This document shows, one piece after another, positions 7,323-62,522 of a stretch of DNA of 64,000 nt. The DNA is from Bacteroidetes bacterium GWF2_43_63 (GTDB lineage: Bacteria; Bacteroidota; Bacteroidia; Bacteroidales; DTU049). The position numbers and the translations under genes are program-made. How positions within the stretch are numbered: position 1 is the first letter of the stretch; each line of letters opens with the position of its first letter. The stretch covers positions 19,219 to 83,218 of the forward strand of contig MEOQ01000029.1 of assembly GCA_001769275.1 (NCBI GenBank). Reading direction: 5' to 3'. The notes under the pieces were generated by a model. That model was not told the DNA's origin. It saw nothing but the letters and a program-made list of their open reading frames with translations, and searched no databases.

Positions 7323-7605
7323 CGCTCAGCCTATCGGGATCCCAAGGTGGATCGAAAGTGAGTTCAACCCAAACGCTTTTAAGTTGCGACATGTATTCCA
7401 CTGCTGTTTTCACCTCAATGGGCAACGTATCAGCTACAGGGCAATTGGGTGCCGTGACTGTCATCAGGATTTTTGCGTTCATTTCAGCGTCGACCGTGAT
7501 GTCATAAATCATCCCCATATCCCAGATATTCACTGGTATTTCCGGGTCAAAAACCGTTTTGATCCGCGAAATTATTTCCTGCACCATTGGGCTAGTTGTA
7601 TCCAT
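7291..7605 (-). CDS. sufT: SUF Fe-S assembly protein, DUF59/SufT family
   Basis: 104 aa. VFDPEIPVNIWDMGMIYDI...TAPNCPVADTLP is the DUF59 signature. Directly follows sufE. Confidence 0.85.
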   Translation of the reverse strand: MDTTSPMVQEIISRIKTVFDPEIPVNIWDMGMIYDITVDAEMNAKILMTVTAPNCPVADTLPIEVKTAVEYMSQLKSVWVELTFDPPWDPDRLSDEAKLELGLL

Positions 7606-7606
7606 G

Positions 7607-8041: not shown

Positions 8042-9255
8042 TCAAAAATTGATTTTACTTTGGTGAGCGATTCGAAGAAATAGTCTATTTCTTCAATGGT
8101 ATTGTAAATTGCGAACGAAATTCGCATGGTTCCGGTAATACCGAAATATTTCATGAGTGGTTCAGCACAATGAGTGCCTGTGCGAAGTGCTATCCCCATT
8201 TTATCAAGCAGGGTGCCTGAATCATAGGGATGAACGCCGTTTATCAGAAAAGAAATTACAGCTGATCGCGGAGCATCGGGCGCAAAAACACGGATTCCGT
8301 CCATGGCCCTGAATTTTTTCAATGCATGTTCAGTCAGCAAATGCTCATAATCGCCGGCTTCTTGAATGTCATAAGAACGCAGAAAGCGAATGGCAGCTTG
8401 CAACCCAAGAACCCCAGCTACATTTGGAGTTCCGGCTTCGAATTTATATGGAAGTTCGTTGAAAGTTGTGTTTTCAAAACTTACATTTTTGATCATCTCG
8501 CCGCCGCCCTGATATGGAGGCATTTTGTCCAGCCATTTTTCTTTTCCGTACAAAACGCCAACACCCATCGGGCCATACATTTTGTGAGCTGAGAAAGCAA
8601 GAAAATCACAATCCAGTGTTTGCACGTCTATTGGAGTATGAGCTACAGACTGAGCTGCATCGACAAGGACCGGAATATTTACAGAATGGGCAAATTCAAT
8701 TATTTCACGGATTGGATTGATAATTCCAAGCACATTGCTGATATGAGCAATGCTGATGAGTTTAGTGCGATCATCAGCAAGCGATTTCAAATGTTCAATG
8801 TCGAGGGTTTCGGCTTCAGTAAGTTTTGCTACGCGAAGCTCAAGCCCGTGTAGTTTGCAGGCAAGCTGCCAGGGAACGATGTTGGAGTGATGCTCGAGTG
8901 TGGAAACAATAATATTGTCGCCGGAATTGAACAGCGTAGTAAATGAAGAAGCCACCAGATTTATGCTCTCTGTTGTTCCTTTTGTAAAAATAATTTCAGA
9001 GACCGATGATGCATTAATGAATGCTGCAACTTCTTGTCTGGCTTCTTCAAAAGCAATGGTGGACTGGGTTGACAGATAATGAACTCCGCGGTGGACATTG
9101 CTGTTGAGTTCAGAATAATAAACAGATTCAGCATCAATCACAGACTTGTGTCGTTGATTGGTGGCTGCATTGTCGAAATAGACCAGTGGTTTTCCGTTAA
9201 CGCTGCGTGACAGGATTGGAAACTGTTTGCGAATTTCAGCCGTGTCGTGTTTCAT
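8038..9255 (-). CDS. sufS: cysteine desulfurase SufS (class V aminotransferase)
   Basis: 405 aa. Contains SAHKMYGPMGVGVLYG (PLP lysine region), RTGTHCAEP (catalytic Cys loop) and a YFDNAAT start. Confidence 0.94.
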   Translation of the reverse strand: MKHDTAEIRKQFPILSRSVNGKPLVYFDNAATNQRHKSVIDAESVYYSELNSNVHRGVHYLSTQSTIAFEEARQEVAAFINASSVSEIIFTKGTTESINLVASSFTTLFNSGDNIIVSTLEHHSNIVPWQLACKLHGLELRVAKLTEAETLDIEHLKSLADDRTKLISIAHISNVLGIINPIREIIEFAHSVNIPVLVDAAQSVAHTPIDVQTLDCDFLAFSAHKMYGPMGVGVLYGKEKWLDKMPPYQGGGEMIKNVSFENTTFNELPYKFEAGTPNVAGVLGLQAAIRFLRSYDIQEAGDYEHLLTEHALKKFRAMDGIRVFAPDAPRSAVISFLINGVHPYDSGTLLDKMGIALRTGTHCAEPLMKYFGITGTMRISFAIYNTIEEIDYFFESLTKVKSIFE

Positions 9256-18857: not shown

Positions 18858-18897
18858 GATTATCCTCACAACTGACTGCTATAAATTTATTCAACTG

Positions 18898-18963
18898 TGG
18901 GCGCGCGTCTCCTTCTTGCAGCCACGTGGAACGAGGCAAGTTGTTTTCTGTTGACGTGTGACC
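18898..18963 (+). repeat. REP-like family C copy (tgggcgcgcgtctcc ... gttgacgYgtgacc)
   Basis: Shares both termini with 44027-44073. The interior is longer and diverged. Confidence 0.7.
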
Positions 18964-25500: not shown

Positions 25501-26091
25501 TCTGGTGTTGTAAAAGATCTGCAGGAAAAGCGAGATAAAAACGAAAATATGTATTCGGCTTTCACGCTGTTTGATTATTCCGGCGAAATTACACTGCGTG
25601 CATTTAAGGATGATTATATCAAATATAAATCGGTGCTCGAAAACGGACAGAAAGTTTTTGTGCATGCCAAGGTCGATGCCGGAAGGTTCGGCCGTGACCC
25701 GGATTCGCGTGAATTACGACTGCAAAGTATATCAAAGCTGGCTGGCTATTTCGATCAGAAAATTGCAGCTGTTTTATTTCACGTTCCAATGGCTGAAATA
25801 TCAGCAGAAAGTACGCGGAGAATCGATGAAATTTTGAACGCCCATGCCGGAAATATAGCCATCAGATTTCTCCTGATGGACCCCGAAAATAAAGAGGTGG
25901 TCAAGCTCAGCAATCCGTATTTGAAAACAGATATTGCAGGAATTTCATTGATTGCCGATCTTGAGTTTGTGAATGGGTATGATGTAAGAAGCATTATTCT
26001 GAGTTCTGAGATTCCATTCCGAAAAAAGATGACCGAAGTGGTTGTTGCAGAAATCCCGGAAGAAGTAAATACTGATGAATATCAGGAATAG
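22543..26091 (+). CDS. dnaE: DNA polymerase III alpha subunit
   Basis: 1182 aa. PHP domain FVHLHLHTIYSVLDGA, palm/fingers GPGRGSAAGS...PDIDVDF and an OB-fold C-terminal region. Confidence 0.98.
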   Translation: MSQFVHLHLHTIYSVLDGAANIKKLLKRAAALNMNSVAVTDHGQMFGILEFVTEAKKAGIKPIIGCETYVARNSMDQTTAKEDRSGHHLILLAKNMQGYRNLVKLISQANLKGFFYTPRIDKDLLSKYHEGLIACSACLGGEIPQLIMNRSEEEALKSIEWYKSLFGDDYYLEMMDHGLPEQKQVNEVLVRLSQKSGVKLIATNDVHYVNKEDFEAHKILIRINTNKDDNDDLYYTGNEYLKSYDEMLALFGDHPEALANTVEISDKVEEFSIEHDVMLPAYPTPKEFSSDFEYMAHLALEGVKGRYADFNDEIKDRLDFELATIEKMGFAGYFLIVQDYIRKAREMGVLVGPGRGSAAGSIVAYGLGITNIDPIKYNLLFERFLNPDRISMPDIDVDFDDYGRDSVIDYVINQYGADKVSQIITFGKLGAKSSIRDVARVMGVELSLSNRIAKLIPDGPKVTLDDAMRNKDFEDLYNSNQDVKKVVDIARTLDGNVRSTGVHACGVIIGREDLSNYVPMARAKDSILPLVQYDGSLVEKAGLLKMDFLGLKTLSIIKDALELIEARHKKKIDIDNISLEEEKTYKLYQKGETIGTFQFESEGMRSWLKKLKPTHIEDLIAMNALFRPGPMGFIPNFIARKHGAEKVEYPHSLAETVLQDTYGIMIYQEQIMLLSQRLANFTKGKADELRKAMGKKKMDLIDKLRSEFIEGAKANGIEKALANDIYDTMAKFGEYGFNKSHSAAYTVLAYQTAWLKANYPPEYMAAVLGHNLNDLKKVTFYINECRRMGIAVLGPDVNESLLKFSVNKENQIRFGLAALKNVGESAAQSIIDERNTNGNYTEINDFFKRNNFRNVNKRALESLAMAGSFDNMNTHRAQFFHTDQDGVVFLEKMTKHASQMQEKLNSQQASLFGEMEEATFPAMEMPECLRWNLDDKLAKELDVAGFYISGHPLDEFVDEVTHFSTHQIQEISDGLDVMKVGTDLLFSGVVKDLQEKRDKNENMYSAFTLFDYSGEITLRAFKDDYIKYKSVLENGQKVFVHAKVDAGRFGRDPDSRELRLQSISKLAGYFDQKIAAVLFHVPMAEISAESTRRIDEILNAHAGNIAIRFLLMDPENKEVVKLSNPYLKTDIAGISLIADLEFVNGYDVRSIILSSEIPFRKKMTEVVVAEIPEEVNTDEYQE

Positions 26092-28720: not shown

Positions 28721-28800
28721 CAACCTTTTTGGGGAATAATATCGATTTCAATTTTGTCGTGTAACTACGTGAATAATAGATAATAGGAGCACTTATTGAA

Positions 28801-28831
28801 AATTGGAGGTCGCAAATTGCGTCCTCCAATT
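28801..28831. repeat. 31-nt near-palindrome upstream of the ORF6N gene
   Basis: aattggaggtcgcaa-a-ttgcgtcctccaatt differs at 2 positions from the perfect palindrome at 29166-29196. Confidence 0.9.
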
Positions 28832-28961: not shown

Positions 28962-29498
28962 ATGAAGACAGAAACCATCTCAGTATTCCCGGACGAAATT
29001 ATCCTGAATAAAATATTTCTTATCCGGGGCAAAAAAGTGATGATCGACCGTGACCTGGCTGAAATGTACGATGTAGAGACAAAAAGATTAAAGGAGGCGG
29101 TTAAACGAAATATTGAACGCTTTCCAAAGGACTTTATGTTTGAAATGAATAAAAGGGAATTTAAAAATTGGAGGTCGCAATTTGCGACCTCCAATTCCGA
29201 CAACATGGGTCTACGCTATGCTCCGTGCTGTTTTACAGAGCAGGGGGTCACCATGTTGGCTTGTATCCTAAATAGTAAGAGAGCAATCGACGTAAATATC
29301 AGGATTATTCGCGTTTTTACACGCATGCGTGAAATGATAATGACTAACAAAGATATCCTTCTTAAACTTGAGCAGCTCGAAACTCAGGTTTTGCGAAGCA
29401 GCGACGACATACAACTGATCTTTTCTGCATTGAAGCAATTGCTTACACAGCCAGAGGTTCCCCGAAAAAAAATTGGATTCAAACAATCCTGTACGTGA
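28962..29498 (+). CDS. ORF6N-domain DNA-binding protein (KilA-N-related)
   Basis: 178 aa. IRGKKVMIDRDLAEMYDVETKRLKEAVKRNIERFPKDFMFEM...NWRSQFATSN...RYAPCCFTEQGVTMLA...RAIDVNIRIIRVF matches the ORF6N family pattern. Confidence 0.85.
   Translation: MKTETISVFPDEIILNKIFLIRGKKVMIDRDLAEMYDVETKRLKEAVKRNIERFPKDFMFEMNKREFKNWRSQFATSNSDNMGLRYAPCCFTEQGVTMLACILNSKRAIDVNIRIIRVFTRMREMIMTNKDILLKLEQLETQVLRSSDDIQLIFSALKQLLTQPEVPRKKIGFKQSCT
29166..29196. repeat. 31-nt perfect palindrome inside the ORF6N CDS
   Basis: aattggaggtcgcaa-t-ttgcgacctccaatt. Encodes NWRSQFATSN. Confidence 0.9.
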
Positions 29499-34161: not shown

Positions 34162-34193
34162 TGCTATTACGAAGGTACGCAATTTTGCCAAAT

Positions 34194-34222
34194 CCCTCGA
34201 AGGGTTCCAAACCCTTCGAGGG
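34194..34222. repeat. REP-like family B palindrome
   Basis: ccctcgaagggttccaaacccttcgaggg, 28 of 29 identical to 62471-62499. Confidence 0.9.
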
Positions 34223-34263
34223 ATAAGCCGCAAATGTGAAAATCAGCATTCAAATACATCTCT

Positions 34264-39673: not shown

Positions 39674-39703
39674 CCATGTCACGGATTTAAAATCCGCGCC
39701 ATG
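39674..39703. repeat. REP-like family H hairpin between the convergent SPOR-protein and mrr genes
   Basis: ccatgtcacggattt-aaaatccgcgccatgg is an imperfect inverted repeat and a plausible bidirectional terminator. Confidence 0.7.
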
Positions 39704-39712
39704 GATGTATCT

Positions 39713-40618
39713 TTATTCATCCCCAAAGTAATCACTATCGATTCTTTTTATCTCAAAAATATTCACAGTCGAAACCGCTAAATTATGATCAATCATAAGT
39801 TCAGCTAAACTTTCTCCGTCAATTAAAACAATCTTTGTTTCATTTCTTGGCTGATATTCTTTTGCTTCATTTGTAAATCTCGAAGTTGTAATGAAAACAC
39901 CTTTTTTTGCACCTTGCCCTGCTAATGCACCCACAAATTTTTGTATTTCAGGTCTTCCAACAACATTTTCCCAGCGTTTTGCTTGTATATAAATTACATC
40001 AAGTCCAAGTTTATCTTCTTTTATTATGCCATCAATTCCTTCATCACCTGAACGACCTATCGAACGACCTGCGTCTTTTATCGAACCGCCGTAACCCATT
40101 TTTACTAATAATTCCACAACTAAAGATTCGAAAAATGCAGGGCTGCTACTTTTAATTTTCAAAAGCAGTTCTTGTGCAAGATTTTTTCTGATACTCAAAT
40201 AACTATTTTCTAATACTTCCTCAGGTGTCGAATCTGTTGGTATATTTTCATTGTCGGTTATCGAATCATCTTCTTTTATTCGGCCAGTTCTTTCCTGATA
40301 AGCTGGGATGGTCTTTAATACCCTCAAATTAATTTCTGTAGGATTCGATCCCAAAAACAGTTTCCCAGCTTCAGTGATTCTAAAAGAACTTCTCTTAGTA
40401 TTTTCAATCAATCCAGCCATTTTAATATGAGACTTTGCCCAGGCAACTCGATTCGAAAAGGTCTTAGCTGCGCCGCTTGGTAAAAATTCATTTATTTCAG
40501 CATCTGTCAGATTAAAATGCTCTGCTAATTTCTGATTAGTCTCATTTGTAGTGTGTTCATCTCCGTCAGATAGAATCTGAATGAAAGGAAGCATAATTGT
40601 CTGAAAATCGGGTATCAT
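39713..40618 (-). CDS. mrr: Mrr-family (type IV, modification-dependent) restriction endonuclease
   Basis: 301 aa. N-terminal Mrr_N-like winged helix (MIPDFQTIMLPFIQIL...RVAWAKSHIKMAGLIE) and C-terminal Mrr_cat core (FESLVVELLVKMGYGG...GDEGIDGII...DVIYIQAKRW). Confidence 0.88.
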   Translation of the reverse strand: MIPDFQTIMLPFIQILSDGDEHTTNETNQKLAEHFNLTDAEINEFLPSGAAKTFSNRVAWAKSHIKMAGLIENTKRSSFRITEAGKLFLGSNPTEINLRVLKTIPAYQERTGRIKEDDSITDNENIPTDSTPEEVLENSYLSIRKNLAQELLLKIKSSSPAFFESLVVELLVKMGYGGSIKDAGRSIGRSGDEGIDGIIKEDKLGLDVIYIQAKRWENVVGRPEIQKFVGALAGQGAKKGVFITTSRFTNEAKEYQPRNETKIVLIDGESLAELMIDHNLAVSTVNIFEIKRIDSDYFGDE

Positions 40619-40694
40619 AATACTTCAATGTTATATGTTTGTGCTTTTATAAGGTTTGCAATAGCGTTATAACGTTATTTGCATCGGTTCCTCA

Positions 40695-40702
40695 CAAAAA
40701 TA
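40695..40702 (-). promoter_or_regulatory. -7 box TATTTTTG at the promoter-proximal end of 84-nt repeat copy 1 (upstream of mrr)
   Basis: CAAAAATA on the plus strand, 76 nt upstream of ATG 40618. Confidence 0.4.
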
Positions 40703-40778
40703 CAAATATTTCACATATACATCAATCGAATTTTTTTGTGCTGGCTTGTGGCGACAGAATGGGGGATTGGGCTGGGAA
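40695..40778. repeat. 84-nt perfect direct repeat, copy 1
   Basis: Identical base for base to 42888-42971: caaaaatacaaatatttcacatatacatcaatcgaatttttttgtgctggcttgtggcgacagaatgggggattgggctgggaa. Confidence 0.95.
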
Positions 40779-40783
40779 TGGTG

Positions 40784-40879
40784 GTCATGTCGCGGATAAC
40801 TCACTGATTATTTTTTTGCAAAGGAGTTCGAGAGCTCATCACTTCCAGCGTTTCGGTTGCCAAATCCGCGCCATGGGGG
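40784..40879. repeat. REP-like family H, split copy
   Basis: Arms gtcatgtcgcggata (40784-40798) and aaatccgcgccatggggg (40862-40879) are separated by ~60 nt. Confidence 0.6.
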
Positions 40880-41067
40880 TGAGTGATTGTGTGTGAATTC
40901 AACAATGTAAATCGTATTTATATCTTACGAAATATTTTCGTCACACTTTGCAAAACAGCAGTTCGCTGGCCTGAACAACCAATGATACTTTAACAATATT
41001 AGAATAACTGTTAGTGGCGTTCCGTTGGGCTCAATGGCCTTCTACTCGATTATGTATTGTTTTAATT

Positions 41068-42003
41068 CTAGTAGTATTCAATAACTCTTTCAATAATATA
41101 TATTTCTTCATCATCAATTATTTCAATTTGCTCAATCCAATTTTCTTTTGAGTCATATTTATATTGATAAGACCATGTTGCATCAATGTTTCCTGAATCA
41201 TTAGTCTCAACAACCTCTTTCTCATTTCCTTTTTCAAAAGTGTACGATATTTTCCCCTCAATCTCTCCTTCAGTAAAATTTTCCCAATATTCATGAGTTC
41301 GAACATAATTCTCATAAACATAAGTTGCTTTTTCTAATATTCCCTCATCACTGTCATGCCATGTTTCAGTAATTAAGTTTCCGTAAGAATCATATAAATA
41401 ATCTAACCATTCTTTGTAGTCATCAAATATTGATTCCTCTTTTATTAATCTGTCATTCTCATCATATGAAAATCGCGTTATTCCAACTTTCTGCCCTTTA
41501 ATGTTAAACTCCTGTTTTTCAACAAGTCGATTGTTCTCATCGTAAAGGAACTTGTATATTGATTCTCTTTCTTCTCCCGGAGCATTTGCATTCGAGGAAC
41601 TTATTTGACTCGGTTGACGATTAGTTTCTTTCATTGAGATTAATCTACCAGACGAGTCGTATGTATAGGTTCTTGTATGATACAACATTTCTGATTTCAC
41701 AAGTTTCCCATTAGCATAATCGAACTGTTCCATTCGGGATATTTTTGAATCTGAGTCAAAGTAGATTTTATTCATCTTGTTACCATTGGAATCAAATTCA
41801 GTTTTGGAATCCTGCTGCCAATTTGATTTCCAACCTCTCCGGATTTTAGCATATCCATCAGTTGTTGATTTTCCAATATAGGATATCTCGGTAATTGATT
41901 TAACCCTATCTTTTAAATTTAAATCTTTTAAAGATAAATCCTGAGCGAATGTCAAGCTTGGCATCAATATTAAAAAAATAATTATTTGTCTGCTAGTTTT
42001 CAT
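41068..42003 (-). CDS. secreted protein with YD/Rhs-like repeats
   Basis: 311 aa. Signal peptide MKTSRQIIIFLILMPSLTFAQ. Recurring Y.YD..G(R/N)L(I/V) units: YTYDSSGRLISM, FLYDENNRLVEK, FSYDENDRLIKE, YLYDSYGNLITE. Very AT-rich. Confidence 0.65.
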   Translation of the reverse strand: MKTSRQIIIFLILMPSLTFAQDLSLKDLNLKDRVKSITEISYIGKSTTDGYAKIRRGWKSNWQQDSKTEFDSNGNKMNKIYFDSDSKISRMEQFDYANGKLVKSEMLYHTRTYTYDSSGRLISMKETNRQPSQISSSNANAPGEERESIYKFLYDENNRLVEKQEFNIKGQKVGITRFSYDENDRLIKEESIFDDYKEWLDYLYDSYGNLITETWHDSDEGILEKATYVYENYVRTHEYWENFTEGEIEGKISYTFEKGNEKEVVETNDSGNIDATWSYQYKYDSKENWIEQIEIIDDEEIYIIERVIEYY

Positions 42004-42169
42004 ATGTTATTGTTTGCCTTAGTCAAATAACGGTTTTCAGCTAACCAAAGAAGGGACGATTTCGAAGCACTGACTTGTCAAGTTACACAAAAGCTTATTA
42101 GATGCAGAAACGCTGAAATACCCACTATCTCGGCAATATAATACACTGCCTGTTATGCACCAACAATTA

Positions 42170-42760
42170 TTATTTTTCATCCTTCATCTTTTGTCGTTCT
42201 ACTTGCAACTTGTCTTGAAAATCTTTATTAAACGGATCAGCTGTCACATTTTTTAAAGCCTTAGCATATTCAGGATGATTTCTGTACTTTATGTCTATCA
42301 ACTTACCATTAGGCATAAGAATTAGAATTAATCCAAACCCTCCAACAATTAGTAGTCTTTTAAAAACATGAATATAAAATTTATTTCTTGTTTTTATGTA
42401 CCGGATTTGAGTCACTATTAACACGATAATCATTCCAGCCAATCCGTTGATTAATTCAAGATTTGCACCTGGGTATGATTGGAATTTAAACAAAATACCA
42501 ATAATGGTAATAGATAATACTATTCCTGTTGCAACCGACCCAATAATTCTCACTGTACTAATGCCTTTATAAGATTCTTTCTTGAAGGCACTTTTAAGTC
42601 CAATATTATTCAATAATACAAAACTCAAAGCAAAATAAAACATCGAATATATTGAAAGCGTTAAGACTGTTAAAACCCCACCACCTGGAACTAAAAGTAA
42701 ATTTAGAACAAGTGAGAGAATTGAACTCAATCCAATTATTAATTCAATTTTTCGCATCAT
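42170..42760 (-). CDS. hypothetical 5-TM membrane protein
   Basis: 196 aa, five hydrophobic segments and a charged C-terminal tail. ILFKFQSYPGANL after a TM helix is reminiscent of the FK..H.PGA motif I recall in GldL-like Bacteroidetes membrane proteins (weak recollection). Family unassigned. Confidence 0.6.
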   Translation of the reverse strand: MMRKIELIIGLSSILSLVLNLLLVPGGGVLTVLTLSIYSMFYFALSFVLLNNIGLKSAFKKESYKGISTVRIIGSVATGIVLSITIIGILFKFQSYPGANLELINGLAGMIIVLIVTQIRYIKTRNKFYIHVFKRLLIVGGFGLILILMPNGKLIDIKYRNHPEYAKALKNVTADPFNKDFQDKLQVERQKMKDEK

Positions 42761-42887
42761 ATCTTTCTTTTTATATTTGGTGCATAATAATTTATATACT
42801 CACCCCAACTGTCCAAAAGGCGCATCAATCCGCCCAACAAGGAATGCTTTGAGCACTTTCTAATGTTTTTGAGGTGCATCAATCTTT

Positions 42888-42895
42888 CAAAAATA
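42888..42895 (-). promoter_or_regulatory. -7 box TATTTTTG at the promoter-proximal end of 84-nt repeat copy 2 (upstream of the membrane-protein gene)
   Basis: CAAAAATA on the plus strand, 127 nt upstream of ATG 42760. Confidence 0.4.
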
Positions 42896-42971
42896 CAAAT
42901 ATTTCACATATACATCAATCGAATTTTTTTGTGCTGGCTTGTGGCGACAGAATGGGGGATTGGGCTGGGAA
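42888..42971. repeat. 84-nt perfect direct repeat, copy 2
   Basis: Identical to 40695-40778. This explains the shared KNTNISHIHQSNFFVLACGDRMGDWAG in two spurious track ORFs. Confidence 0.95.
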
Positions 42972-42989
42972 GGTTTTCCGGGAGATCCC
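42971..42989 (+). repeat. 19-nt direct repeat F, copy 1
   Basis: aggttttccgggagatccc, identical to 43610-43628. Confidence 0.85.
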
Positions 42990-43014
42990 GGGTCTGGCCC
43001 GGGAATTTTGTACT

Positions 43015-43053
43015 CCACTGAATCAGTCTTCACCGCAGGTGAAGTCGGATTCG
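43015..43053 (+). repeat. hairpin-containing repeat G, copy 1
   Basis: ccactgaatcagtcttcaccgcaggtgaagtcggattcg, with hairpin cttcac-cgcag-gtgaag. Confidence 0.75.
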
Positions 43054-43150
43054 AACGTGTCCGCCCACTGGCGGATTAGCGTTCATCTGCAGTATGTGTG
43101 GTTTTAATCTTTTCGCGTTCATTTGCGTTTATTCGCGGAAGAAAAGAAGA

Positions 43151-43196
43151 AGGTCACGCGTCAACGTAAAACGTTGCAAGCGGGAGACGCGCGCCC
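43151..43196 (-). repeat. REP-like family C copy, inverted orientation
   Basis: ggtcacgcgtcaacgtaaaacgttgcaagcgggagacgcgcgcccaa is the reverse complement of 44027-44073 with about 4 mismatches. Confidence 0.85.
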
Positions 43197-43560
43197 AACG
43201 GGGTGGTTGCATGCGAGAGGCACGCGCTAAATGTGAGTTTATAAAGTTGAAAGTTATGAAGTTGAAAGGCATTTCAATAAACACAGTTCATGAAATATTC
43301 AAAAAGCAGGAATGTCGAAATGCCAGATTTATTCTAAACCCAAATTGCCTATCAACCTGGGAAGTGCTAATTCAGCGCGGATGTCGCCATATATGATTTT
43401 CGGACAAGAAAATGTGCGGTCAGCGGAAAAAATATTTCGGAGCAAAGCGGAGAACCATGATCCGGATGTCTGTTTGAGGAGCAAAGCGACGAGTTATATC
43501 CGGTTGGAGCTGACCGAATATTTTCCCGAAAATCATATCCGGCGACTAGCTTTTCTTTTG

Positions 43561-43594
43561 GTACTTTTCTTTTTGCAATGAAAAAGAAAAGTAC
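43561..43594. repeat. perfect 14-bp-stem hairpin
   Basis: gtacttttcttttt-gcaatg-aaaaagaaaagtac. Confidence 0.85.
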
Positions 43595-43609
43595 ACAAAA
43601 TAGCTTCGT

Positions 43610-43628
43610 AGGTTTTCCGGGAGATCCC
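43610..43628 (+). repeat. 19-nt direct repeat F, copy 2
   Basis: aggttttccgggagatccc. Confidence 0.85.
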
Positions 43629-43767
43629 TATTAATGAACTCTGAATAAGGAACAAGGGAGTGTGAATGATGAACGGTACTTTAATCAGGATTTACTTCTA
43701 ACTTCTGATTTCCTTGTTAATTGTTCAATATTCAGTTATTGTGTCTTCGTGTCCTTGTGGCGAATAT

Positions 43768-43878
43768 TCTCTGCGTCTCCGCGCCCTCTGCGCGACGCAA
43801 ATGTGAACTCTCTCTGCGCCTTAGCGCCCTCTGCGCGATGCAAATGCGAACTCACTTTGCGCCCTTTGCGCGCGACCC
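43768..43878 (+). repeat. tandem ~42-nt repeat, about 2.6 units
   Basis: tctctgcgtctccgcgccctctgcgcgacgcaaatgtgaac / tctctctgcgccttagcgccctctgcgcgatgcaaatgcgaac / tcactttgcgccctttgcgcgcgaccc. Confidence 0.8.
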
Positions 43879-43916
43879 ACTGAATCACCCTTCATCGCAG
43901 ATGAAGGGTGATTCGC
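43877..43916 (+). repeat. hairpin-containing repeat G, copy 2
   Basis: ccactgaatcacccttcatcgcagatgaagggtgattcgc, with hairpin cccttcat-cgcag-atgaaggg. Confidence 0.75.
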
Positions 43917-44026
43917 ATTAGCGTCAATGAGACCTGCTGAGGGAAGCTAAATTCTTCGCGAGAATTGGCGTAATTCGCGGAAGAAAGATGTTCGTGTCCT
44001 GATGCCTTTGTGGCATCAATCCAACT

Positions 44027-44073
44027 CTGGGCGCGCGTCTCCTGCATGCAACGTTATACGTTGACGCGTGACC
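44027..44073 (+). repeat. REP-like family C copy
   Basis: ctgggcgcgcgtctcctgcatgcaacgttatacgttgacgcgtgacc. Contains the internal palindrome caacgttatacgttg. Confidence 0.85.
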
Positions 44074-44080
44074 TGTAATA

Positions 44081-44112
44081 AAAAGGGCCGTCACTTGTGC
44101 AACGGCCCTTTC
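44081..44112 (-). terminator. intrinsic terminator after the M16 peptidase gene
   Basis: The GGGCCGT / ACGGCCC stem is flanked by AAAA (plus strand), so the minus strand reads a hairpin followed by TTTTTAT. It lies 28 nt downstream of the stop at 44140. Confidence 0.75.
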
Positions 44113-44139
44113 GGTTATGGTACTTTGTTGAAAGTATTT

Positions 44140-47295: not shown

Positions 47296-47381
47296 TGTAA
47301 CGCTTGTAACGTGTAACGACTGTAACAATTGTAACGTCTGTAACGATTGTAACGCTTGTAACGCGTAACGACTGTAACGAC
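47296..47381. repeat. tandem array of about 10 units of a 9-nt repeat TGTAACGNN
   Basis: tgtaacgct tgtaacg tgtaacgac tgtaacaat tgtaacgtc tgtaacgat tgtaacgct tgtaacgc gtaacgac tgtaacgac. A degenerate cgcgtaacgaac lies at ~47418. Confidence 0.9.
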
Positions 47382-47464: not shown

Positions 47465-48034
47465 ATGATTCAAGAAAAACATATCTGGAAACCTGGCAAC
47501 ATGCTTTATCCTTTACCGGTAGTCATGGTTTCATGCGGTAATGCCGACGTTCGCAACATTATTACCATTGCATGGACCGGCACTTTGTGCACGACTCCAC
47601 CCATGGTGTACATCTCAGTGCGGCCTGAACGCCATTCATATGCAATGATAAAAGAACAGATGGCATTTACGATTAATCTTGTGGATAAAAATCTGGTGAA
47701 AGCAGCCGACTTCTGCGGAGTCCGGAGTGGGAAAGACCTCGACAAGTTTAAAACCATGAAACTCACGCCTGTGGCCGGAATTCAGATTCCTTGTCCGTAT
47801 ATTGCCGAAAGCCCGCTGTCGATGGAATGCAAAGTGACACAGATTATCGAGCTGGGTTCGCACCACATGTTCATGGCCGAAGTGCTTAACACCATTGCCG
47901 ACGAAAGATTCTTCAACACAAGAACGTCAAAATTCGAAATCGAACGTGCCGCTCTGATAAACTACAATCATGGTGGATACTTCGAGCATGGCGATCTGGT
48001 TGGAACGTTTGGCTATTCGGTGAAGAAGAAATGA
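47465..48034 (+). CDS. flavin reductase-like FMN-binding protein
   Basis: 189 aa. LYPLPVVMVSCG...NIITIAWTGTLCTTPPMVYISVRP matches the flavin_reduct split-barrel pattern. Confidence 0.88.
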   Translation: MIQEKHIWKPGNMLYPLPVVMVSCGNADVRNIITIAWTGTLCTTPPMVYISVRPERHSYAMIKEQMAFTINLVDKNLVKAADFCGVRSGKDLDKFKTMKLTPVAGIQIPCPYIAESPLSMECKVTQIIELGSHHMFMAEVLNTIADERFFNTRTSKFEIERAALINYNHGGYFEHGDLVGTFGYSVKKK

Positions 48035-48917: not shown

Positions 48918-49412
48918 TTATTGGACCTGAATAATTTTCACTTCAACTCTTCGGTTGATGGAGTGCATGGGTTCCTGCAATTCTTTTGATTGAAGTGCGT
49001 CAATTTCTTCTTTTAAAATAAGTGGTTGTTGTCTACCGTAGCCTTTTATTTCAATTCTGGTCGGATCAATTTCAAACAAACCAACGAGTACTTCTTTAAC
49101 TGATCCTGCCCGATGATAGGAAATGGTGTCATTGAAGTCATCCGTGCCGCGGTAATCGGTGTGCACGCCAATTTCAATGCACATTCCGGGATGCGCATTC
49201 AGAAAATCGGCAATTATTTTTACCGAGTCTTCGCATTCAGGAAGAACGCGTGACCCTCCGCTCAGGGTAAACAAAATTTTAGGTGCCAAAATATTGTCTC
49301 CGGCAGCGAATACCGAATCGTTGAATGATTTATAACCAGCAATGTGCTGTTGCGCATGAATTGGGGTTAGCAACCCAGCGAAAAGCCAGAATATGCAAAA
49401 GATTTTCTTCAT
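48918..49412 (-). CDS. OmpA-like peptidoglycan-binding domain protein
   Basis: 164 aa. Signal peptide MKKIFCIFWLFAGLLTPIHAQ. IEIGVHTDYRGTDDFNDTISYHRAGSVKEVLV...IEIKGYGRQQP...NRRVEVKII is the OmpA_C-like core. Confidence 0.8.
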   Translation of the reverse strand: MKKIFCIFWLFAGLLTPIHAQQHIAGYKSFNDSVFAAGDNILAPKILFTLSGGSRVLPECEDSVKIIADFLNAHPGMCIEIGVHTDYRGTDDFNDTISYHRAGSVKEVLVGLFEIDPTRIEIKGYGRQQPLILKEEIDALQSKELQEPMHSINRRVEVKIIQVQ

Positions 49413-50200
49413 TCAATACGCATTACTGTATTCTCCGAAATTACGAAAACAGATGGATCTGTATAAGGATTTACCCGAATAAAGCCTTCTTCAAAGCCCC
49501 AGTTTTCGCTGAGTGATTCGGCATTAATAATCAGCATACGGCTGTCTTTTCTGAATTCTGAACCACTATAGTTATTCATAAACGGAAGCTGTGAATAAAT
49601 AATTTTACCAGTAATCCGGTCAACAATAGCCATTTGCTGACAACTGCTCCCACAGCCCCACGTAACAATTGTGTAATGACCGGCAAAGTTCACCCCTTCG
49701 TCTTCACATCCATTTTTAATTCTTGTAACAAATTTCAATGCACTGCGATCTGTCGAAAAATCTGGCATTGCAAGTTTTCCTGAATATATTTCAGCAACAT
49801 CAAAATCGCAAAAATCATTTTTGAAGCTGAATTTCACAAACACGCCAGGCGTGGCAATAGCTTCATAGTTTGCAACAATAATTTTTTTTGGATCTTCGAA
49901 AACGGTATCGCCGTGTTTATAAAATTTTGATTTTTCACCATGTTTCAGAATTTCATACTTCATAAGTTTCGACGCTTTGAACATGATATTGTCGATCTTA
50001 ATAATCGTGTCGCCTGATATAGGATTAAAACAATTATCAAGTCTATCAATACCATTAAATGCTGATTTTTCAGCATTACTATTTTGACTATTGCATGAAT
50101 AAAGAATTAAAGTAAAGGCAATGAAAACCCACAGAAAATAATCAGTGATTTTTCGATTCTCTAATAAGTAGATTAATTGTTTTAAACAGGAATTAATCAT
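49409..50200 (-). CDS. hypothetical lipoprotein
   Basis: 263 aa with lipobox ...FTLILYSC. C-terminal motif NFAGHYTIVTWGCGSSCQ. The stop overlaps the ATG of the OmpA-like gene (4-nt overlap). Confidence 0.6.
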   Translation of the reverse strand: MINSCLKQLIYLLENRKITDYFLWVFIAFTLILYSCNSQNSNAEKSAFNGIDRLDNCFNPISGDTIIKIDNIMFKASKLMKYEILKHGEKSKFYKHGDTVFEDPKKIIVANYEAIATPGVFVKFSFKNDFCDFDVAEIYSGKLAMPDFSTDRSALKFVTRIKNGCEDEGVNFAGHYTIVTWGCGSSCQQMAIVDRITGKIIYSQLPFMNNYSGSEFRKDSRMLIINAESLSENWGFEEGFIRVNPYTDPSVFVISENTVMRIE

Positions 50201-50274
50201 TAATCGAAAATATGCATTTTATTGATTGAAAATCTTCCATTCATAAATCACCAACAATAATGTTTTTCATTTTT

Positions 50275-52362
50275 CTATTCCTTGAAAAATTTCAATGAAT
50301 GAATTCCCGCTTTGTTGCTGATGGAGAGCAAATACATGCCATTGCTCAGTTGATGAACCGGCACAACGATGTAACCGCCCTGAGCTTGCTGAATACTTGA
50401 ATAGACGCGGCGTCCATGCAAATCGAAAACAATCACTTCGCAATCAGATTCAGCACCAGCGATGGTAATATAATCTTTTGCAGGATTTGGAAACAGCATC
50501 AAATCTGGTTTACTGAAATCAGCGACTGAAACAGGCGAGGTGCGGTAATTACATTTGAATCCCTGCGCGTGCGTGGTAGCCGTTGTTTTGAGCGTGATGG
50601 TCATGGTGCCGTTGGCGGAATACAAAACCGGAGGCAGTTGGTTGCCTTTGAAATCACCAAGTATGACATTTGTTGTATGATCGGTTACTCTGACGTAATC
50701 GCTGGAATCCACATCAAATTCTGAAAATGAAAGAAGTATCGGCTCGCCTGATGCCGGCTCAATTTTCCAGCGACAGAAATTATTTCCGTGGTACATGTAA
50801 GGACCAGAGCCATCTTCGATGGTGTCGGATTCAGCAGTAATTGTTGACAACGCCGTGCAGAATCCAAAAGGAGAAACAATGCTATAGGAAATCAGAAAGC
50901 CGGCTGCAGTGTCAGCGGCATTGCTTGTGAATGTAAGAAATACGCGATCGCCCGTGGACTGAATTATTGAAGGAATCGAAGAACCGCTGTAGGAGCCAAG
51001 TACAGGCGCCGAAGTGTTTTCTCCGTCGTAGATTGTCAGCACATCGTTGACGCTCTCAGTTTCAAAGCGGTCGAACGTAAGTTTAATGCTGGTTGCGCTG
51101 TCGTCCGGAGCAATCAGCCAGGAGCAATCCGTATTGTTGCGATAGCCGAACAAAGGTCCGGAGCCGTCATCGATGGTACCGTCGCGTGAGCTGACCGTGT
51201 CGGTTCCGTTGCAATAATATGGGTATGGGCCATCGGGATACATGTTGACAACTAGTTCATGCATCAAAGTAAAATCAGCTCCACTGGGTGTCAGATTGCT
51301 GGTGTAGAAATAGCCGTCGGCAGAGCCGCCCCAGCCCCAGTTGAAGTGAAAAAAACAGGTATCCTGATAGCCATCCACCACGAAAGCGTGTCCGCTCATA
51401 TAGATGGTGTCGCCCCAGCCCGCATAATACATGGGCAGTCCGCGTTCAAGGTGACTGATAATAACGCTATCCCAGTTGAGCGTAACCGAATCACGGAAAA
51501 TGTATCGGGTTGAATCGACATATTTGAAAAAAGTTTTTAAAACATGAGCTGCCTTGTGGTTGTTCATTCCGCTTCCGTCGGGGCCATAGTGCATATCGAC
51601 GCCAACTCCGATATTATAGATAAGTTCTGCTGTCTCCGGATTGGTGCGGGTGAGTGCGGTAGCCATTTCGTTAAAATCATAGGTCGCAGCAGCATAATCA
51701 ACGGTGAGCGTTCCATACACCGTGTCTTCGCTTGTGTAGGACCCAACGCCGGATTGCGGCCAGCGAAAATAATTCACCAATTGTCCAAGTGCTGTGGCCA
51801 CACAACCAGTATAACATTTATCATCGGGTCCATCGGGATCGGCCGGACAGAATTCATTGTAGTAAGTTACCTGATACCATTTTGTTGTCAGAAGAGGTGC
51901 AACCTGTCCTTTCGGCGCATTAATGCTTCCAATCATATAATCGGCCCAAAGCTGTTGATTTTCCGGATTCTGATAATTTTTCAAAACAGATGTTTCGTAA
52001 ACTTGTTTTGAATAATTTTCGAGCAATGCATTCAATGCCGGATTTGAATGATTTTGCGGGCAGTGGTTTTCGGACGAATAAGCCACAACGGGAACAATAT
52101 TTTTATTGGCGGAAACAATTATAAATCCCTCCGGAAAAAGATTGAAAACATAGTAGGTTGTTTCCCCATTTAATACGCCGGTATAAGATTCTGCAAAATA
52201 AGGTGCGAAACTGTTTCCAAGCCGTTGTGTTGCAAAATTGGCCGCCACAGTGCTTGCTTCTTCCGGAGTGACGCTCTGCGCTTTTGCAAGATTGCCGTAA
52301 AACAAATCAAGGGCAAGGAACAACGCCAGGCCCGCAACAAATCTCATTGATTTGAATTTCAT
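50275..52362 (-). CDS. C10-family cysteine peptidase with two CUB-like domains and T9SS C-terminal domain
   Basis: 695 aa.
- Catalytic contexts: YTGCVATALGQLVNYF, GHAFVVDGY, HFNWGWGGSADGYF.
- Two CUB-like modules: GTIDDGSGPLFGYRNNTDCSWLI... and DTIEDGSGPYMYHGNNFCRWKI....
- C-terminus: LFPNPAKDYITI...GMYLLSISN. Confidence 0.9.
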   Translation of the reverse strand: MKFKSMRFVAGLALFLALDLFYGNLAKAQSVTPEEASTVAANFATQRLGNSFAPYFAESYTGVLNGETTYYVFNLFPEGFIIVSANKNIVPVVAYSSENHCPQNHSNPALNALLENYSKQVYETSVLKNYQNPENQQLWADYMIGSINAPKGQVAPLLTTKWYQVTYYNEFCPADPDGPDDKCYTGCVATALGQLVNYFRWPQSGVGSYTSEDTVYGTLTVDYAAATYDFNEMATALTRTNPETAELIYNIGVGVDMHYGPDGSGMNNHKAAHVLKTFFKYVDSTRYIFRDSVTLNWDSVIISHLERGLPMYYAGWGDTIYMSGHAFVVDGYQDTCFFHFNWGWGGSADGYFYTSNLTPSGADFTLMHELVVNMYPDGPYPYYCNGTDTVSSRDGTIDDGSGPLFGYRNNTDCSWLIAPDDSATSIKLTFDRFETESVNDVLTIYDGENTSAPVLGSYSGSSIPSIIQSTGDRVFLTFTSNAADTAAGFLISYSIVSPFGFCTALSTITAESDTIEDGSGPYMYHGNNFCRWKIEPASGEPILLSFSEFDVDSSDYVRVTDHTTNVILGDFKGNQLPPVLYSANGTMTITLKTTATTHAQGFKCNYRTSPVSVADFSKPDLMLFPNPAKDYITIAGAESDCEVIVFDLHGRRVYSSIQQAQGGYIVVPVHQLSNGMYLLSISNKAGIHSLKFFKE

Positions 52363-62464: not shown

Positions 62465-62470
62465 GTTTAG

Positions 62471-62522
62471 CCCTCGAAGGGTTCCAAACCCATCGAGGGC
62501 TTTGTTCCAACCCCTTCGATGG
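62471..62522. repeat. REP-like family B palindrome plus adjacent half unit
   Basis: ccctcgaagggttccaaacccatcgaggg followed by ctttgttccaaccccttcgatgg. Abuts the stop codon at 62524. Confidence 0.9.

Follow-up and report, generated by a model that had tools for sequence, protein, structure and literature searches.

Integron cassettes can insert outside att sites, where they can be expressed from nearby promoters, and isolated cassettes of this kind are known as SALINs (Loot et al., bioRxiv 10.1101/2022.09.11.507474). We use SALIN and CALIN here as the categories of IntegronFinder, and the attC x attG route is that described by Loot et al. Sedentary chromosomal integron arrays, such as the VCR arrays of Vibrio, include carriers of anti-phage genes (bioRxiv 10.1101/2024.07.02.601719; PMC12614218), and integrons are reported to be rare in the complete genomes of Bacteroidota (PMC9024848).

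We have examined an islet of three genes bearing an 84-nt direct repeat in the window, a 64-kb stretch of DNA from Bacteroidetes bacterium GWF2_43_63. It seems reasonably likely that the islet is composed of three former integron cassettes stacked at one chromosomal site, outside an integron, and that the repeat is resident sequence bordering them that was duplicated. The locus is SALIN-like, in that a single decayed attC survives and the window lacks an integrase, and it is a case of gene capture, instructive yet essentially ordinary, and not a new defence system.

Composition and gene content of the islet

The islet is flanked by genes for a SPOR-domain protein and an M16 peptidase, and its own three genes, all in one orientation on the minus strand, encode the restriction enzyme Mrr, a small protein with YD repeats (YD), and a membrane protein with five helices (TM). 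Its GC content is 33.9%, compared with 42.2% for the window as a whole (35.2%, 31.5%, and 30.3% in mrr, YD, and TM respectively), and within the window it is both the GC minimum and the maximum of tetranucleotide deviation (z = 3.3). A preliminary description of this DNA had suggested that the islet is compositionally foreign and that GC and k-mer deviation be computed; the direction of the claim holds, but the contrast is smaller than was supposed, as the dnaE-like ORF (22543-26091), previously put at about 55% GC, is in fact 43.7%. No integrase or transposase was found among the 20 larger ORFs scanned and the called neighbours in the window, in agreement with that description, and the window contains no tRNA or tmRNA target.

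The mrr gene (39713-40618, minus strand) encodes a 301-aa restriction endonuclease of type IV (modification-dependent), and its original identification is borne out by the Pfam domains Mrr_N (3.5e-28) and Mrr_cat (2.2e-37), both matched over their full length, and by PADLOC (mREase_IV, 1.4e-82). Homologues with 77-89% amino acid identity are present in several Bacteroidota orders, and the one with 89% identity, on contig L180 of a Flavobacterium MAG, starts 30 nt past an attC in an array of four attCs. DNA homology of mrr to other loci is limited to the ORF.

The YD gene (41068-42003, minus strand) encodes a small secreted YD/RHS-repeat beta-sheet protein of 311 aa, with matches to Pfam RHS_repeat (2.8e-9) and TIGR01643 and an all-beta AlphaFold model (pLDDT 84). 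Foldseek relates the model to the YD sheets of Rhs proteins and teneurins (E 1e-10, low TM-score) and also to the DUF4595 protein 4ghb. Of the earlier label, YD-repeat lipoprotein, the repeats are present and the N-terminus is signal-peptide-like, but the protein contains no cysteine and therefore cannot be a lipoprotein. We also considered, and rejected, assignment of the protein as an Rhs toxin.

The TM gene (42170-42760, minus strand) encodes a 196-aa protein of a function-unknown family, with five predicted membrane helices, as first proposed, and a helical C-terminal tail. A likeness to GldL had also been suggested, but GldL_N scores 19.4 bits, under the Pfam cut-off of 24 bits. We identified 58 homologues, each of about 195 aa; the AlphaFold model has a pLDDT of 93, and a fold search of the PDB gave no match (best E 1.2).

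Relationship of the three genes to integron cassettes

On metagenome contigs, TM homologues occur in many arrays whose ~136-nt sites have the layout RYYYAAC...GTTRRRY and co-varying stems; 75.9% of cells are paired, versus 32-44% when the 3' partner is slid, and the covariation score is reached by 0 of 500 shuffles. A covariance model (R1) built from 16 attCs of these arrays identifies 46 attC sites in 31 loci, every one of them on the ORF strand, and array attCs mostly score 50-107 bits (range 25-107). It has one match in the window, at 42023-42160 on the minus strand (30 bits, E 6.8e-5, model positions 1-136, the full length), and an nhmmer attC profile finds the same site with E 1.5e-7. This is the decayed attC of the TM cassette, with R'' (GCATAAC) at 42158-42152 and R' (GTTATTT) at 42031-42025; many of its L-stem pairs are non-canonical, its stems are largely broken, and it folds no better than shuffled sequence (z = +0.57). 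Both this relic, which lies between TM and YD, and the membership of all three genes in cassette families had been overlooked in the earlier reading of the islet.

The core of the TM cassette (42153-42787, minus strand) carries complementary, inverted 9-nt boxes at both ends, TTATGCACC at 42787-42779 on the R' side and GGTGCATAA at 42161-42153 on the R'' side, and equivalent boxes co-vary, with GTT...AAC kept, in 17 further loci. Its DNA homology to two other TM loci (L095 and L096, 86-91%) spans 42153-42796, extending to the R'' box and about 9 nt past the R' box, and the base preceding the R' box is an A, not a G. The cassette proper occupies 42787-42031 (757 nt), with the YD cassette starting at 42030. 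Close TM relatives (83-87% amino acid identity) adjoin unrelated genes.

The covariance model finds no attC-like sequence after YD or mrr in the window, and the cassette status of these genes therefore rests on homologues elsewhere. Three arrays (L097, L181, and L183) contain YD homologues with 61-66% identity as single cassettes, and an attC follows each of them; the homology to L097 ends 25 nt past the YD stop codon. All three gene families recur as single-ORF integron cassettes in attC arrays. In the islet, TM and YD remain joined as two contiguous cassettes (R' box, TM, attC, YD), and mrr is a separate unit.

The preliminary description had raised the prospect that an Mrr-linked YD and membrane-protein module is a defence architecture. 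The three genes are not such a module, and the proposal finds no support in a tblastn test of co-occurrence covering 48 TM loci, six Mrr loci, and one YD locus, in which no two of the families occur together in any of the 55 other loci and gene contexts differ, or in a PADLOC defence search, which gave no match for either YD or TM.

The 84-nucleotide direct repeat and its surroundings

The two copies of the repeat, at 40695-40778 (copy 1) and 42888-42971 (copy 2), both on the minus strand, match at 84 of 84 positions, exactly as first described, and are the only copies in the window with up to three mismatches allowed, where none is expected. Nothing further resembling the 84-mer is present in the window or in 166 other loci, and a 28-mer from it had no match in metagenome and viral scans of a collection from which the source itself is apparently absent. 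Both ends are abrupt, and the downstream leaders and upstream flanks are no more alike than shuffled controls (467 and 480 of 1000 shuffles, respectively, score at least as well as the real pairs). Folding shows no inverted symmetry or hairpin, and copy 1 is without secondary structure (DNA fold z = +0.8). Features expected at a recombination site are all lacking from the 84-mer: a hairpin is absent, homology does not continue past its ends, and no further copy was found.

Beyond a GC-rich upstream half of 40 nt, each copy terminates on the minus strand in TTG-N20-TATTTTTG (TTG at 40725-40723 and TATTTTTG at 40702-40695 in copy 1; TTG at 42918-42916 and TATTTTTG at 42895-42888 in copy 2), so that the Bacteroidetes -7 box previously noted at the end of each copy is upheld as a promoter-like motif. 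The pattern TTG-N19-21-TAnnTTTG occurs ten times in the window on both strands, two of these being the 84-mer copies. The distances to the start codons had also been given correctly, as judged from the sequence: 76 nt to the ATG of mrr (40618) and 127 nt to that of TM (42760). The mrr leader (40619-40694, minus strand) contains the palindrome CGTTATAACG about 22 nt past the repeat, which is like an AAC/GTT core. The TM leader (42761-42887, minus strand) contains two direct repeats, GATTGATGC(A/G)CC, at 42830-42823 and 42884-42877, and a third of this type, GATTGATG, lies inside the 84-mer in the -33 region. The two leaders show no similarity to each other, and neither has an attC by the covariance model.

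On the side of copy 2 away from TM is a native, gene-free, REP-like stretch of 1.17 kb (42972-44139, 46% GC), downstream of the M16 peptidase gene and homologous (nhmmer E 6.8e-27) to a stretch between genes on an unrelated contig, L167. It matches no Rfam family. We considered whether it could be an intI pseudogene and rejected this; its ten small ORFs have no meaningful Pfam match, the lone trace being a sub-threshold one to RodZ_C (E 0.041). The last 8 nt of copy 2 together with its flank (42964-42989, GCTGGGAAGGTTTTCCGGGAGATCCC) resemble a REP-like unit at 43603-43628 (88%), and the same end also matches GCTGCGAGGGTTTTCCAGGAGATCCC in L167, an argument that for the 84-mer itself rests on 8 nt, with 6/8 and 5/8 matches.

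At the opposite end of the islet, a hairpin (A, 39674-39704) separates mrr (stop at 39713) from the SPOR-domain gene that converges on it (stop at 39660), and looks like a terminator (-12.3 kcal/mol, z = -5.1, equalled by 0 of 200 shuffles). Between YD and copy 1 is a non-coding region of 289 nt (B, 40779-41067, minus strand), which has no attC by the covariance model and which repeats the arms of hairpin A at 40783-40797 and 40862-40876, about 65 nt apart (repeat family D5); the 15-nt arm AAATCCGCGCCATGG recurs exactly at 40862-40876. One arm differs between A and B at three of 15 positions though the 84-mers are identical, which is not what a simple two-allele model would lead one to expect.

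Five assemblies that were produced independently (JGI, ENA, two UBA MAGs, and the GWF2 MAG) agree exactly on this arrangement, all of them being short-read metagenome data from one clonal population. Logan contigs (k=31) break exactly 30 nt inside each repeat copy, and one of them, L094, consists of the inter-repeat segment with 30 nt of repeat on either side. No empty or single-cargo site was found in related genomes, the best relative having a 59% identical peptidase and no synteny.

Origin of the duplication

On the favoured reading, the 84-mer is chromosomal sequence bordering the cargo, with the promoter-like motif at its cargo-proximal end, and is neither a recombinase site nor a dispersed element. 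Copy 2 lies in its probable ancestral context, and the right edge of copy 1 (40778/40779) is the sole novel junction in the structure, which is exactly the product of one exchange within 84 bp of homology. We propose that the 84-mer was duplicated when the second cargo unit joined the first, either by Campbell-type integration, through the 84-bp homology, of a 2,193-bp circle that would have contained the 84-mer, TM, the attC, YD, and region B, or alternatively by unequal exchange between two locus variants that differed in cargo, in which case the illegitimate junction would lie at 40778/40779, where TTCC microhomology is visible. The repeat, the attC relic, the R' and R'' boxes, the cassette status of all three families elsewhere, and the lack of linkage among them elsewhere are observed directly; the sequence of events, the route of recombination, and the activity of the promoter are inferred. 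If this is correct, then mrr and TM-YD, normally promoterless as cassettes, would each sit behind an identical resident promoter-like sequence, and recombination between the copies could remove TM-YD and leave mrr expression intact.

Two readings had been offered in the preliminary description, of which the added unit is closer to the evidence than the duplicated promoter. The latter may describe a consequence of the event, and in its stronger form a promoter-operator block was copied to co-regulate mrr and TM-YD, with its identity kept by selection. The end of each copy does fall exactly on a TAnnTTTG box with a TTG 20 nt before it, a motif found only ten times in the window, and GATTGATG in the -33 region, present twice more in the TM leader, could be an operator; however, GATTGATG repeats are missing from the mrr leader, and selection on a promoter leaves unexplained the perfect identity across the GC-rich upstream half, the right boundary cutting into a REP-like unit, and the total loss of similarity right past both ends. 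The three genes are also unlinked in all 55 other loci compared and therefore have no shared function to co-regulate, and we regard this explanation as unlikely. The other reading took the repeats as att-like scars of a ~2.1-kb cassette beside mrr; the bracketed, added unit stands, and the site-specific att sites do not. For the 84-mers to be attL and attR of a small TM-YD integrative element mobilised in trans by a recombinase from another locus would fit perfect direct repeats around a compositionally foreign 2.1-kb segment, a k=31 graph compatible with a 2,193-bp circle, and the closest long-contig TM homologue (L095), which likewise lies within a perfect 22-nt direct repeat. Yet no bracketing repeats were found where TM or Mrr stands alone at another locus, comparison defines single cassettes with R' and R'' boxes as the mobile units rather than a 2.1-kb block, the 64 kb yield neither an integrase or transposase nor a tRNA or tmRNA target, the 84-mer lacks both inverted symmetry and a hairpin, and copy 2 continues into a REP-like unit that is native, all of which make such an element quite improbable.

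It is more doubtful still that the locus is the remnant of an integron platform, with the 84-mer as Pc, the TM leader as a degenerate attI, and intI lost from the 1.17-kb gap. The gene-free gap is about the size of an intI gene, the promoter-like motif is directed into the cassettes, and the first cassette is preceded by three direct repeats like the R' box TTATGCACC, an arrangement that recalls the DR1 and DR2 sites of attI1. But the gap consists of REP-like units that also occur on an unrelated contig, no fragment of an integrase-like ORF is present in it, the end of the 84-mer is itself part of such a unit, and the sequence between 84-mer and cassette is wholly different at the two copies, where a fixed attI would not differ. 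We give very little credence to an assembly artefact, a wrong path through the repeat concealing either alternative alleles or a circle beside the chromosome; the data are all from short reads of one clonal population and the k=31 de Bruijn graph is ambiguous at the 84-mer, but at least five assemblies from different pipelines have an identical 85-kb contig with both copies, the repeat at 84 nt is shorter than a typical read and the junctions are therefore directly spanned, and look-ups with the peptidase, Mrr, TM, and YD gave no contig with an alternative context.

Comparison with known systems

The islet Mrr shares with the E. coli-type enzyme the Mrr_N winged-helix and Mrr_cat PD-(D/E)xK domains, covered over the full length, and the catalytic stretch ...GIDGII...DVIYIQAKRW..., and differs in being a solitary, highly mobile Bacteroidota variant, a predicted endonuclease with 77-89% identity across orders. 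In relation to Campbell-type integration or tandem duplication via short homology, the islet has the same two identical direct repeats and single novel junction, and the added segment could loop out by recombination between the repeats; the differences are a segment without plasmid or phage functions and homology of only 84 bp.

As for sedentary arrays, homologues of all three islet genes lie in arrays of uniform ~136-nt attCs that share the orientation of small ORFs, mostly of unknown function, and an Mrr carried as cassette cargo agrees with reports that cassettes are enriched in defence genes, whereas the window has no array, intI, or recognisable attI, and the 84-mer is unstructured and upstream of genes rather than an attC downstream of them. 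The closest correspondence is with SALINs or small CALINs: the islet consists of single-ORF units of foreign composition in one orientation, one R''-L''...L'-R' attC directly follows an islet ORF, GTT/AAC boxes mark cassette ends, no integrase is nearby, and resident promoter-like sequence lies upstream, which is the reported route of expression for such cassettes. It departs from them in the decay of its attC, whose L stems are broken, in the loss of the attC from two of the three genes, in its host, an uncultured member of the Bacteroidota, and in an 84-bp duplication of the bordering chromosome, which lies outside the SALIN picture as described.

The islet and its gene products

The islet at 39713-42971, whose three genes lie on the minus strand, is compositionally foreign, as had been proposed from the sequence: it has 33.9% GC against 42.2% for the window and a tetranucleotide z of 3.3, and no other part of the window deviates as strongly, the lowest-GC 900-nt window being at 41.9 kb. 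The value of about 55% GC that the preliminary description gave for dnaE is wrong, as that ORF has 43.7% GC. Further low-GC patches (32–35%) are present at approximately 1000-2200 and at 49400-50400, the second of which covers a 263-aa ORF (49409-50200) that has no Pfam match and lies beside OmpA-like and LOR genes. A domain scan of 20 larger ORFs and the called neighbours, which are housekeeping genes, confirms that no integrase or transposase is present, and no tRNA or Rfam family was found in the window. A plasmid or phage origin of the islet was considered and rejected, as plasmids have only distant matches to the mrr nuclease core and phages have none.

The ORF at 39713-40618 codes for a full-length Mrr type IV restriction endonuclease, containing both the Mrr_N DNA-binding domain (3.5e-28) and the Mrr_cat PD-(D/E)xK nuclease domain (2.2e-37) that define the enzyme, each over the full length of its Pfam profile, and matching the PADLOC model mREase_IV at 1.4e-82. 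The second gene, referred to here as YD (41068-42003), encodes a 311-aa protein with YD/RHS repeats, modelled as an all-beta sheet (pLDDT 84); Foldseek aligns the model locally with Rhs and teneurin shells, with an Rhs-shell TM-score of no more than 0.4, and also with the small DUF4595 protein 4ghb. A polymorphic toxin of the Rhs/YD-repeat type would have a large closed shell of YD repeats together with an Rhs core and, at its C-terminus, a toxin domain; YD has repeat matches only and is not such a toxin, because it is 311 aa long and lacks both core and toxin domain. Neither is it the lipoprotein that it was first taken to be, since a lipobox needs an invariant cysteine after the signal peptide and there is no cysteine in the translation. 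The third gene, TM (42170-42760), encodes a five-helix membrane protein of a well-conserved family of about 195 aa, for which the structure model is confident (pLDDT 93) but has no match in the PDB with E below 1; the suggested likeness to GldL is not supported by this fold search or by the GldL_N profile, whose score of 19.4 bits is below the cut-off of 24. PADLOC assigns YD and TM to no family.

All three gene families circulate as integron cassettes

Comparison of the window with the two closest TM loci (L095 and L096) shows that DNA homology is limited to 42153-42796, and that it stops at the box GGTGCATAA on the R'' side and about 9 nt past the complementary box TTATGCACC on the R' side. 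The TM unit thus has the form of an integron cassette, with a 5′ end (TTRRRY...) complementary to its own R'' box and homology ending at the boxes. The ORF is bounded likewise in 17 of approximately 33 further TM loci with enough flanking sequence, where the boxes vary from locus to locus (for example GTTATGCGCC/GGCGCATAAC, GTTAGCACGC/GCGTGCTAAC and GTTGTGCAAC/GTTGCACAAC) but complementarity is kept, and only GTT...AAC is constant. Such co-variation is the sequence signature of integron attC core sites.

Imperfect hairpins of about 136 nt, with the layout R''-L''...L'-R', lie downstream of those TM ORFs, and 16 of these attCs were aligned to build a covariance model, R1. In this alignment 75.9% of cells are paired, as against 32–44% when the 3′ partner is slid, double changes occur in 70 cells as against 32 in shuffles, and none of 500 shuffles reaches the observed covariation score. 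With R1, 31 loci yield 46 sites, which form arrays of up to nine and without exception lie on the ORF strand, and YD loci yield 11 further attCs. Relatives of YD (61–66% aa identity) are directly followed by an attC in three arrays (L097, L181 and L183), and the start of an Mrr relative with 89% identity, in a Flavobacterium MAG (L180), lies 30 nt past an attC in an array that has four. All three gene families therefore circulate as integron cassettes. Arrays with uniform attCs of about 136 nt are present at L097, L100, L106, L108, L111/L112, L180, L181 and L183, with up to 9 attCs per 17-kb locus and small ORFs that mostly have no known function; at least one is in a Flavobacterium MAG, and that at L097 is interrupted by IS110 and DDE transposases. 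No integrase was found within the fetched flanks of these arrays.

The three families do not travel together. A tblastn comparison of 55 loci (48 for TM, 6 for Mrr and 1 for YD, more YD loci being added later) revealed none in which any two of them lie near each other. The closest TM relatives (83–87% aa identity) adjoin a peroxiredoxin gene or a PIN gene, and Mrr relatives (88–89%) lie between housekeeping genes or within an array of small ORFs of unknown function. The idea of an Mrr-linked defence architecture with YD and a membrane protein is thus not supported, given the absence of co-occurrence in the 55 loci and the empty PADLOC result for YD and TM. Homologues of Mrr with 77–89% identity (P0072-P0191) are present in MAGs of several Bacteroidota orders (Flavobacterium, Paludibacteraceae, Prolixibacteraceae and Cytophaga), each time as a lone gene and in differing contexts (L175, L176, L179 and L180), and DNA homology among these loci is limited to the ORF. 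Among the matches listed, the best relatives of the neighbouring core M16 peptidase are only 59% identical and show no synteny, and the contrast with Mrr across orders favours a recent spread of mrr by horizontal transfer. Among the single-gene defence determinants seen in this comparison, Mrr ranks with the more mobile, and at least once it is an integron cassette.

A single decayed attC in the window

With filters off, R1 has one significant match in the 64 kb, at 42023-42160 on the minus strand (full model, 30 bits, E 6.8e-5), which falls exactly between TM and YD; an nhmmer profile of the same attC alignment finds the same interval with E 1.5e-7. The profile and covariance model were used because a scan of the window for AAC...GTT folding energy is not discriminating, its background reaching -30 kcal/mol. 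The central part of the site and its AAC/GTT ends are kept, but pairing in the L stems is largely non-canonical, and shuffled sequence folds at least as well. The site is therefore a decayed attC, and probably an inactive relic; attCs in arrays mostly score 50–107 bits (range 25–107) as compared with its 30. It delimits a TM cassette of 757 nt (42787-42031), with the YD cassette starting at 42030.

No attC was found after YD, after mrr or in either of the leaders that separate the 84-nt repeat copies from the mrr and TM start codons (R1 with filters off, E up to 10, including 40600-41100), and a search for attC remnants in the mrr leader and in the region between YD and the first repeat copy (40779-41067) was likewise negative. 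An attC 3′ of the ORF, which marks an integron cassette, is thus present for TM and absent for YD and mrr, and the cassette origin of the latter two rests on their homologues in arrays, as they have no detectable attC of their own. The two closest TM loci also lack an attC by R1.

The locus is not a CALIN, which needs at least two nearby attCs where the window has one significant match in 64 kb, nor a complete integron, as neither the 20 larger ORFs scanned nor the 10 small ones within the 1.17-kb gap beyond the islet encode an integrase domain. One attC and no integrase place it in the SALIN class; SALINs have been attributed to cassettes inserted at genomic sites outside integrons and expressible from nearby promoters (Loot et al., bioRxiv 10.1101/2022.09.11.507474).

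The 84-nt direct repeat and its junctions

The sequences at 40695-40778 (copy 1, on the mrr side) and 42888-42971 (copy 2, on the TM side) are identical over 84 nt and lie 76 nt and 127 nt from the mrr and TM start codons respectively, all as first described. These are the only copies in the window (both strands, up to three mismatches; expected number 0), and identity breaks off sharply at both ends. The 76-nt and 127-nt leaders are no more similar to each other than shuffled sequence, and neither are the 120-nt flanks preceding the two copies, so degenerate homology past the repeat ends can be rejected. Relatives were found neither elsewhere in the window nor in 166 loci of other organisms, which include all of the cassette arrays, and the repeat is therefore not part of the cassettes or their attCs. 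A 28-mer from it has no match in a collection of metagenome and viral contigs, a result of little weight because the collection evidently lacks the source contig.

Folding reveals no secondary structure on either strand, no symmetry and no hairpin or TIR. A dispersed repeat of the REP or MITE type does not fit two copies in 64 kb, none in the 166 loci and the lack of a hairpin or TIR; an attC hairpin in the repeat or the intergenic regions is rejected by folding z values of +0.6 to +0.8. Descent from the 3′ end of the flanking SPOR gene was also rejected, with a local alignment score of 34 where shuffles give 21±3.3 and a maximum of 37; an unbiased search does not rank the SPOR 3′ region, in which only hairpin arms are paralogous.

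On the minus strand each copy has TATTTTTG at its cargo-proximal end with ATTG 20 nt before it, and thus matches, as a motif, the Bacteroidetes sigma-A-type promoter (-33 TTTG and -7 TAnnTTTG, about 19–21 nt apart). The pattern TTG-N19-21-TAnnTTTG has only 10 matches in 128 kb (both strands of the window), of which two are the repeat copies. In addition, three copies of GATTGATG lie upstream of TM in a span of 98 nt (minus strand, 42823-42830, 42877-42884 and 42913-42920) and another is at 40720-40727, the window average being one per 7.5 kb of strand. Its extended form GATTGATGC(A/G)CC, present twice with a related copy upstream of the TM R' box, is similar to the cassette R' box TTATGCACC, and these repeats may serve as an operator or as binding repeats of an attI-like kind.

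The final 8 nt of copy 2 run on into GGTTTTCCGGGAGATCCC, and a 26-nt stretch over this boundary reappears at 43603-43628 (88%) and, as GCTGCGAGGGTTTTCCAGGAGATCCC, in the metagenome contig L167. Because this stretch belongs to REP-like units common to the window and L167, copy 2 is in its native context, and it follows that copy 1 is broken off at its right end (40778/40779) within a native repeat unit, this being the sole novel junction. There is also a second direct-repeat pair: the arms of the terminator-like hairpin that separates the SPOR gene from mrr (39674-39704) recur beside copy 1 at 40783-40797 and 40862-40876, one with 15/15 and the other with 12/15 matches, and now about 65 nt apart. 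TTCC follows both hairpin copies and also starts the 84-nt repeat, and may represent microhomology at the junction.

The gene-free 1.17 kb beyond copy 2 (42972-44139) is built of REP-like units, including a 47-nt inverted pair (43151-43197 and 44028-44074) whose core TGGGCGCGCGTCTCC occurs again at 18898-18912 (within 18889-18920), a 43-nt tandem repeat (43768-43853) and paired hairpins (43015-43053 and 43877-43915). The whole set is also present in L167, which is otherwise unrelated, at 7527-8072 (nhmmer E 6.8e-27), and is a lineage-specific intergenic repeat family without an Rfam match. An intI pseudogene or ncRNA was sought here and rejected, with no meaningful Pfam or Rfam match.

Several other repeats were observed. 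The TM-cassette homologue at L095 (GCA_020052415.1; 83% aa identity, the closest on a long contig, and without an attC) has a perfect direct repeat of 22 nt, GGGAACCCGGAGTAAAGAATTA, on either side (7859-7880 and 8627-8648), 768 nt apart in REP-rich non-coding DNA, which echoes the 84-nt bracket of the window; such brackets are not a general trait of solitary cassettes, as they are absent from eight other loci. Within the window, a 36-nt palindromic element, TTGAAAATTGGAGGTCGCAAATTGCGTCCTCCAATT, is present twice (92%; 28796-28831 and 29161-29196) around and inside an ORF6N/Rha-like regulator ORF (28962-29498). A 9-nt TGTAACG-type tandem array (47296-47378) about 90 nt upstream of a flavin reductase ORF (47465-48034) may consist of regulator-binding sites, and a 38-nt hairpin-type element, CCCTCGAAGGGTTCCAAACCCTTCGAGGG, is a small dispersed repeat with inverted intergenic copies 28 kb apart (34189-34226 and 62467-62504).

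Proposed history of the locus and alternatives

From these sequence relationships we infer, as the most likely history in its order, route and promoter role, a tandem exchange. The mrr unit and the TM-attC-YD block would each have reached or occupied the same interval, from the SPOR terminator to the promoter-bearing sequence by the REP cluster, and the two would have been joined in tandem by a single exchange. This could have been homologous integration of a 2,193-bp circle carrying the 84 bp; alternatively, two versions of the locus could have undergone unequal exchange, and either route would duplicate the bordering 84 bp. As a result, cassette genes that are normally promoterless would each lie behind an identical resident promoter-like sequence, and the TM-YD unit could be shed by recombination between the two copies, leaving mrr unaffected. 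We note that the two hairpin copies resemble each other less closely than the 84-nt copies do, which a simple model of exchange does not predict.

An error of assembly is very unlikely to have created the tandem arrangement, as the repeat is shorter than the reads. Both copies are found in each of at least five concordant assemblies of independent origin (a JGI metagenome contig, an ENA scaffold, two UBA MAGs and the MAG Bacteroidetes bacterium GWF2_43_63), which are 100% identical across the 16.8 kb compared; Logan k=31 contigs end exactly 30 nt inside each copy, and one of them (2,169 nt) consists of the inter-repeat segment with 30 nt of repeat on each side. Duplication of a promoter for co-regulation, one of two readings offered in the preliminary description, may describe a consequence of the duplication, but we regard it as an unlikely cause, since it explains neither the exact identity across the GC-rich upstream half nor the boundary inside a REP-like unit. 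The other, that the copies are site-specific att sites of an integrative element, seems to us rather improbable: there is no recombinase, the repeat is without symmetry, and comparison shows single cassettes to be what moves, the TM-YD block not being found as a unit elsewhere.

Two further readings appear very improbable. The GATTGATGC(A/G)CC repeats upstream of the TM R' box would suit a degraded integron platform, for which they would be the attI-like set and the 84-nt repeat would contain Pc, but the gap expected to hold intI is REP-like and has no integrase fragment, and the sequence between repeat and cassette boundary differs between the copies. We would also give little credence to an integrase-independent capture hotspot, formed by the 84-bp stub and the duplicated hairpin, in which stub-bearing cassette circles are stacked by homologous recombination, each with a copy of the resident promoter; were it true, units could be shed by repeat-mediated deletion, the GATTGATGC(A/G)CC repeats would be protein-binding sites, and the L095 22-nt bracket would be a second instance.

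Comparison with known systems

An apparently odd islet of Mrr, YD and a membrane protein becomes the readable record of three unrelated cassettes fixed in a chromosome outside any integron. For defence-island mining the lesson is one of caution: that a gene adjoins a restriction gene within low-GC DNA does not count as evidence of a functional module. Cassettes have been reported to stock anti-phage genes (bioRxiv 10.1101/2024.07.02.601719; PMC12614218), and Mrr as cassette cargo fits those reports. Integrons are reported to be rare in complete Bacteroidota genomes (PMC9024848); arrays of attCs of about 136 nt are not rare in the environmental samples that carry these gene families. Experiments have demonstrated that cassettes can escape from integrons, and SALINs have led to the same inference (Loot et al., bioRxiv 10.1101/2022.09.11.507474); this locus is a natural example of such escape in an uncultured groundwater Bacteroidota. 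Loci of this kind, with integron cassettes left behind outside an integron, are already known, and the present new case is noteworthy for its host phylum, its Mrr cargo and the 84-bp duplication that places a resident promoter-like sequence before both mrr and TM-YD.
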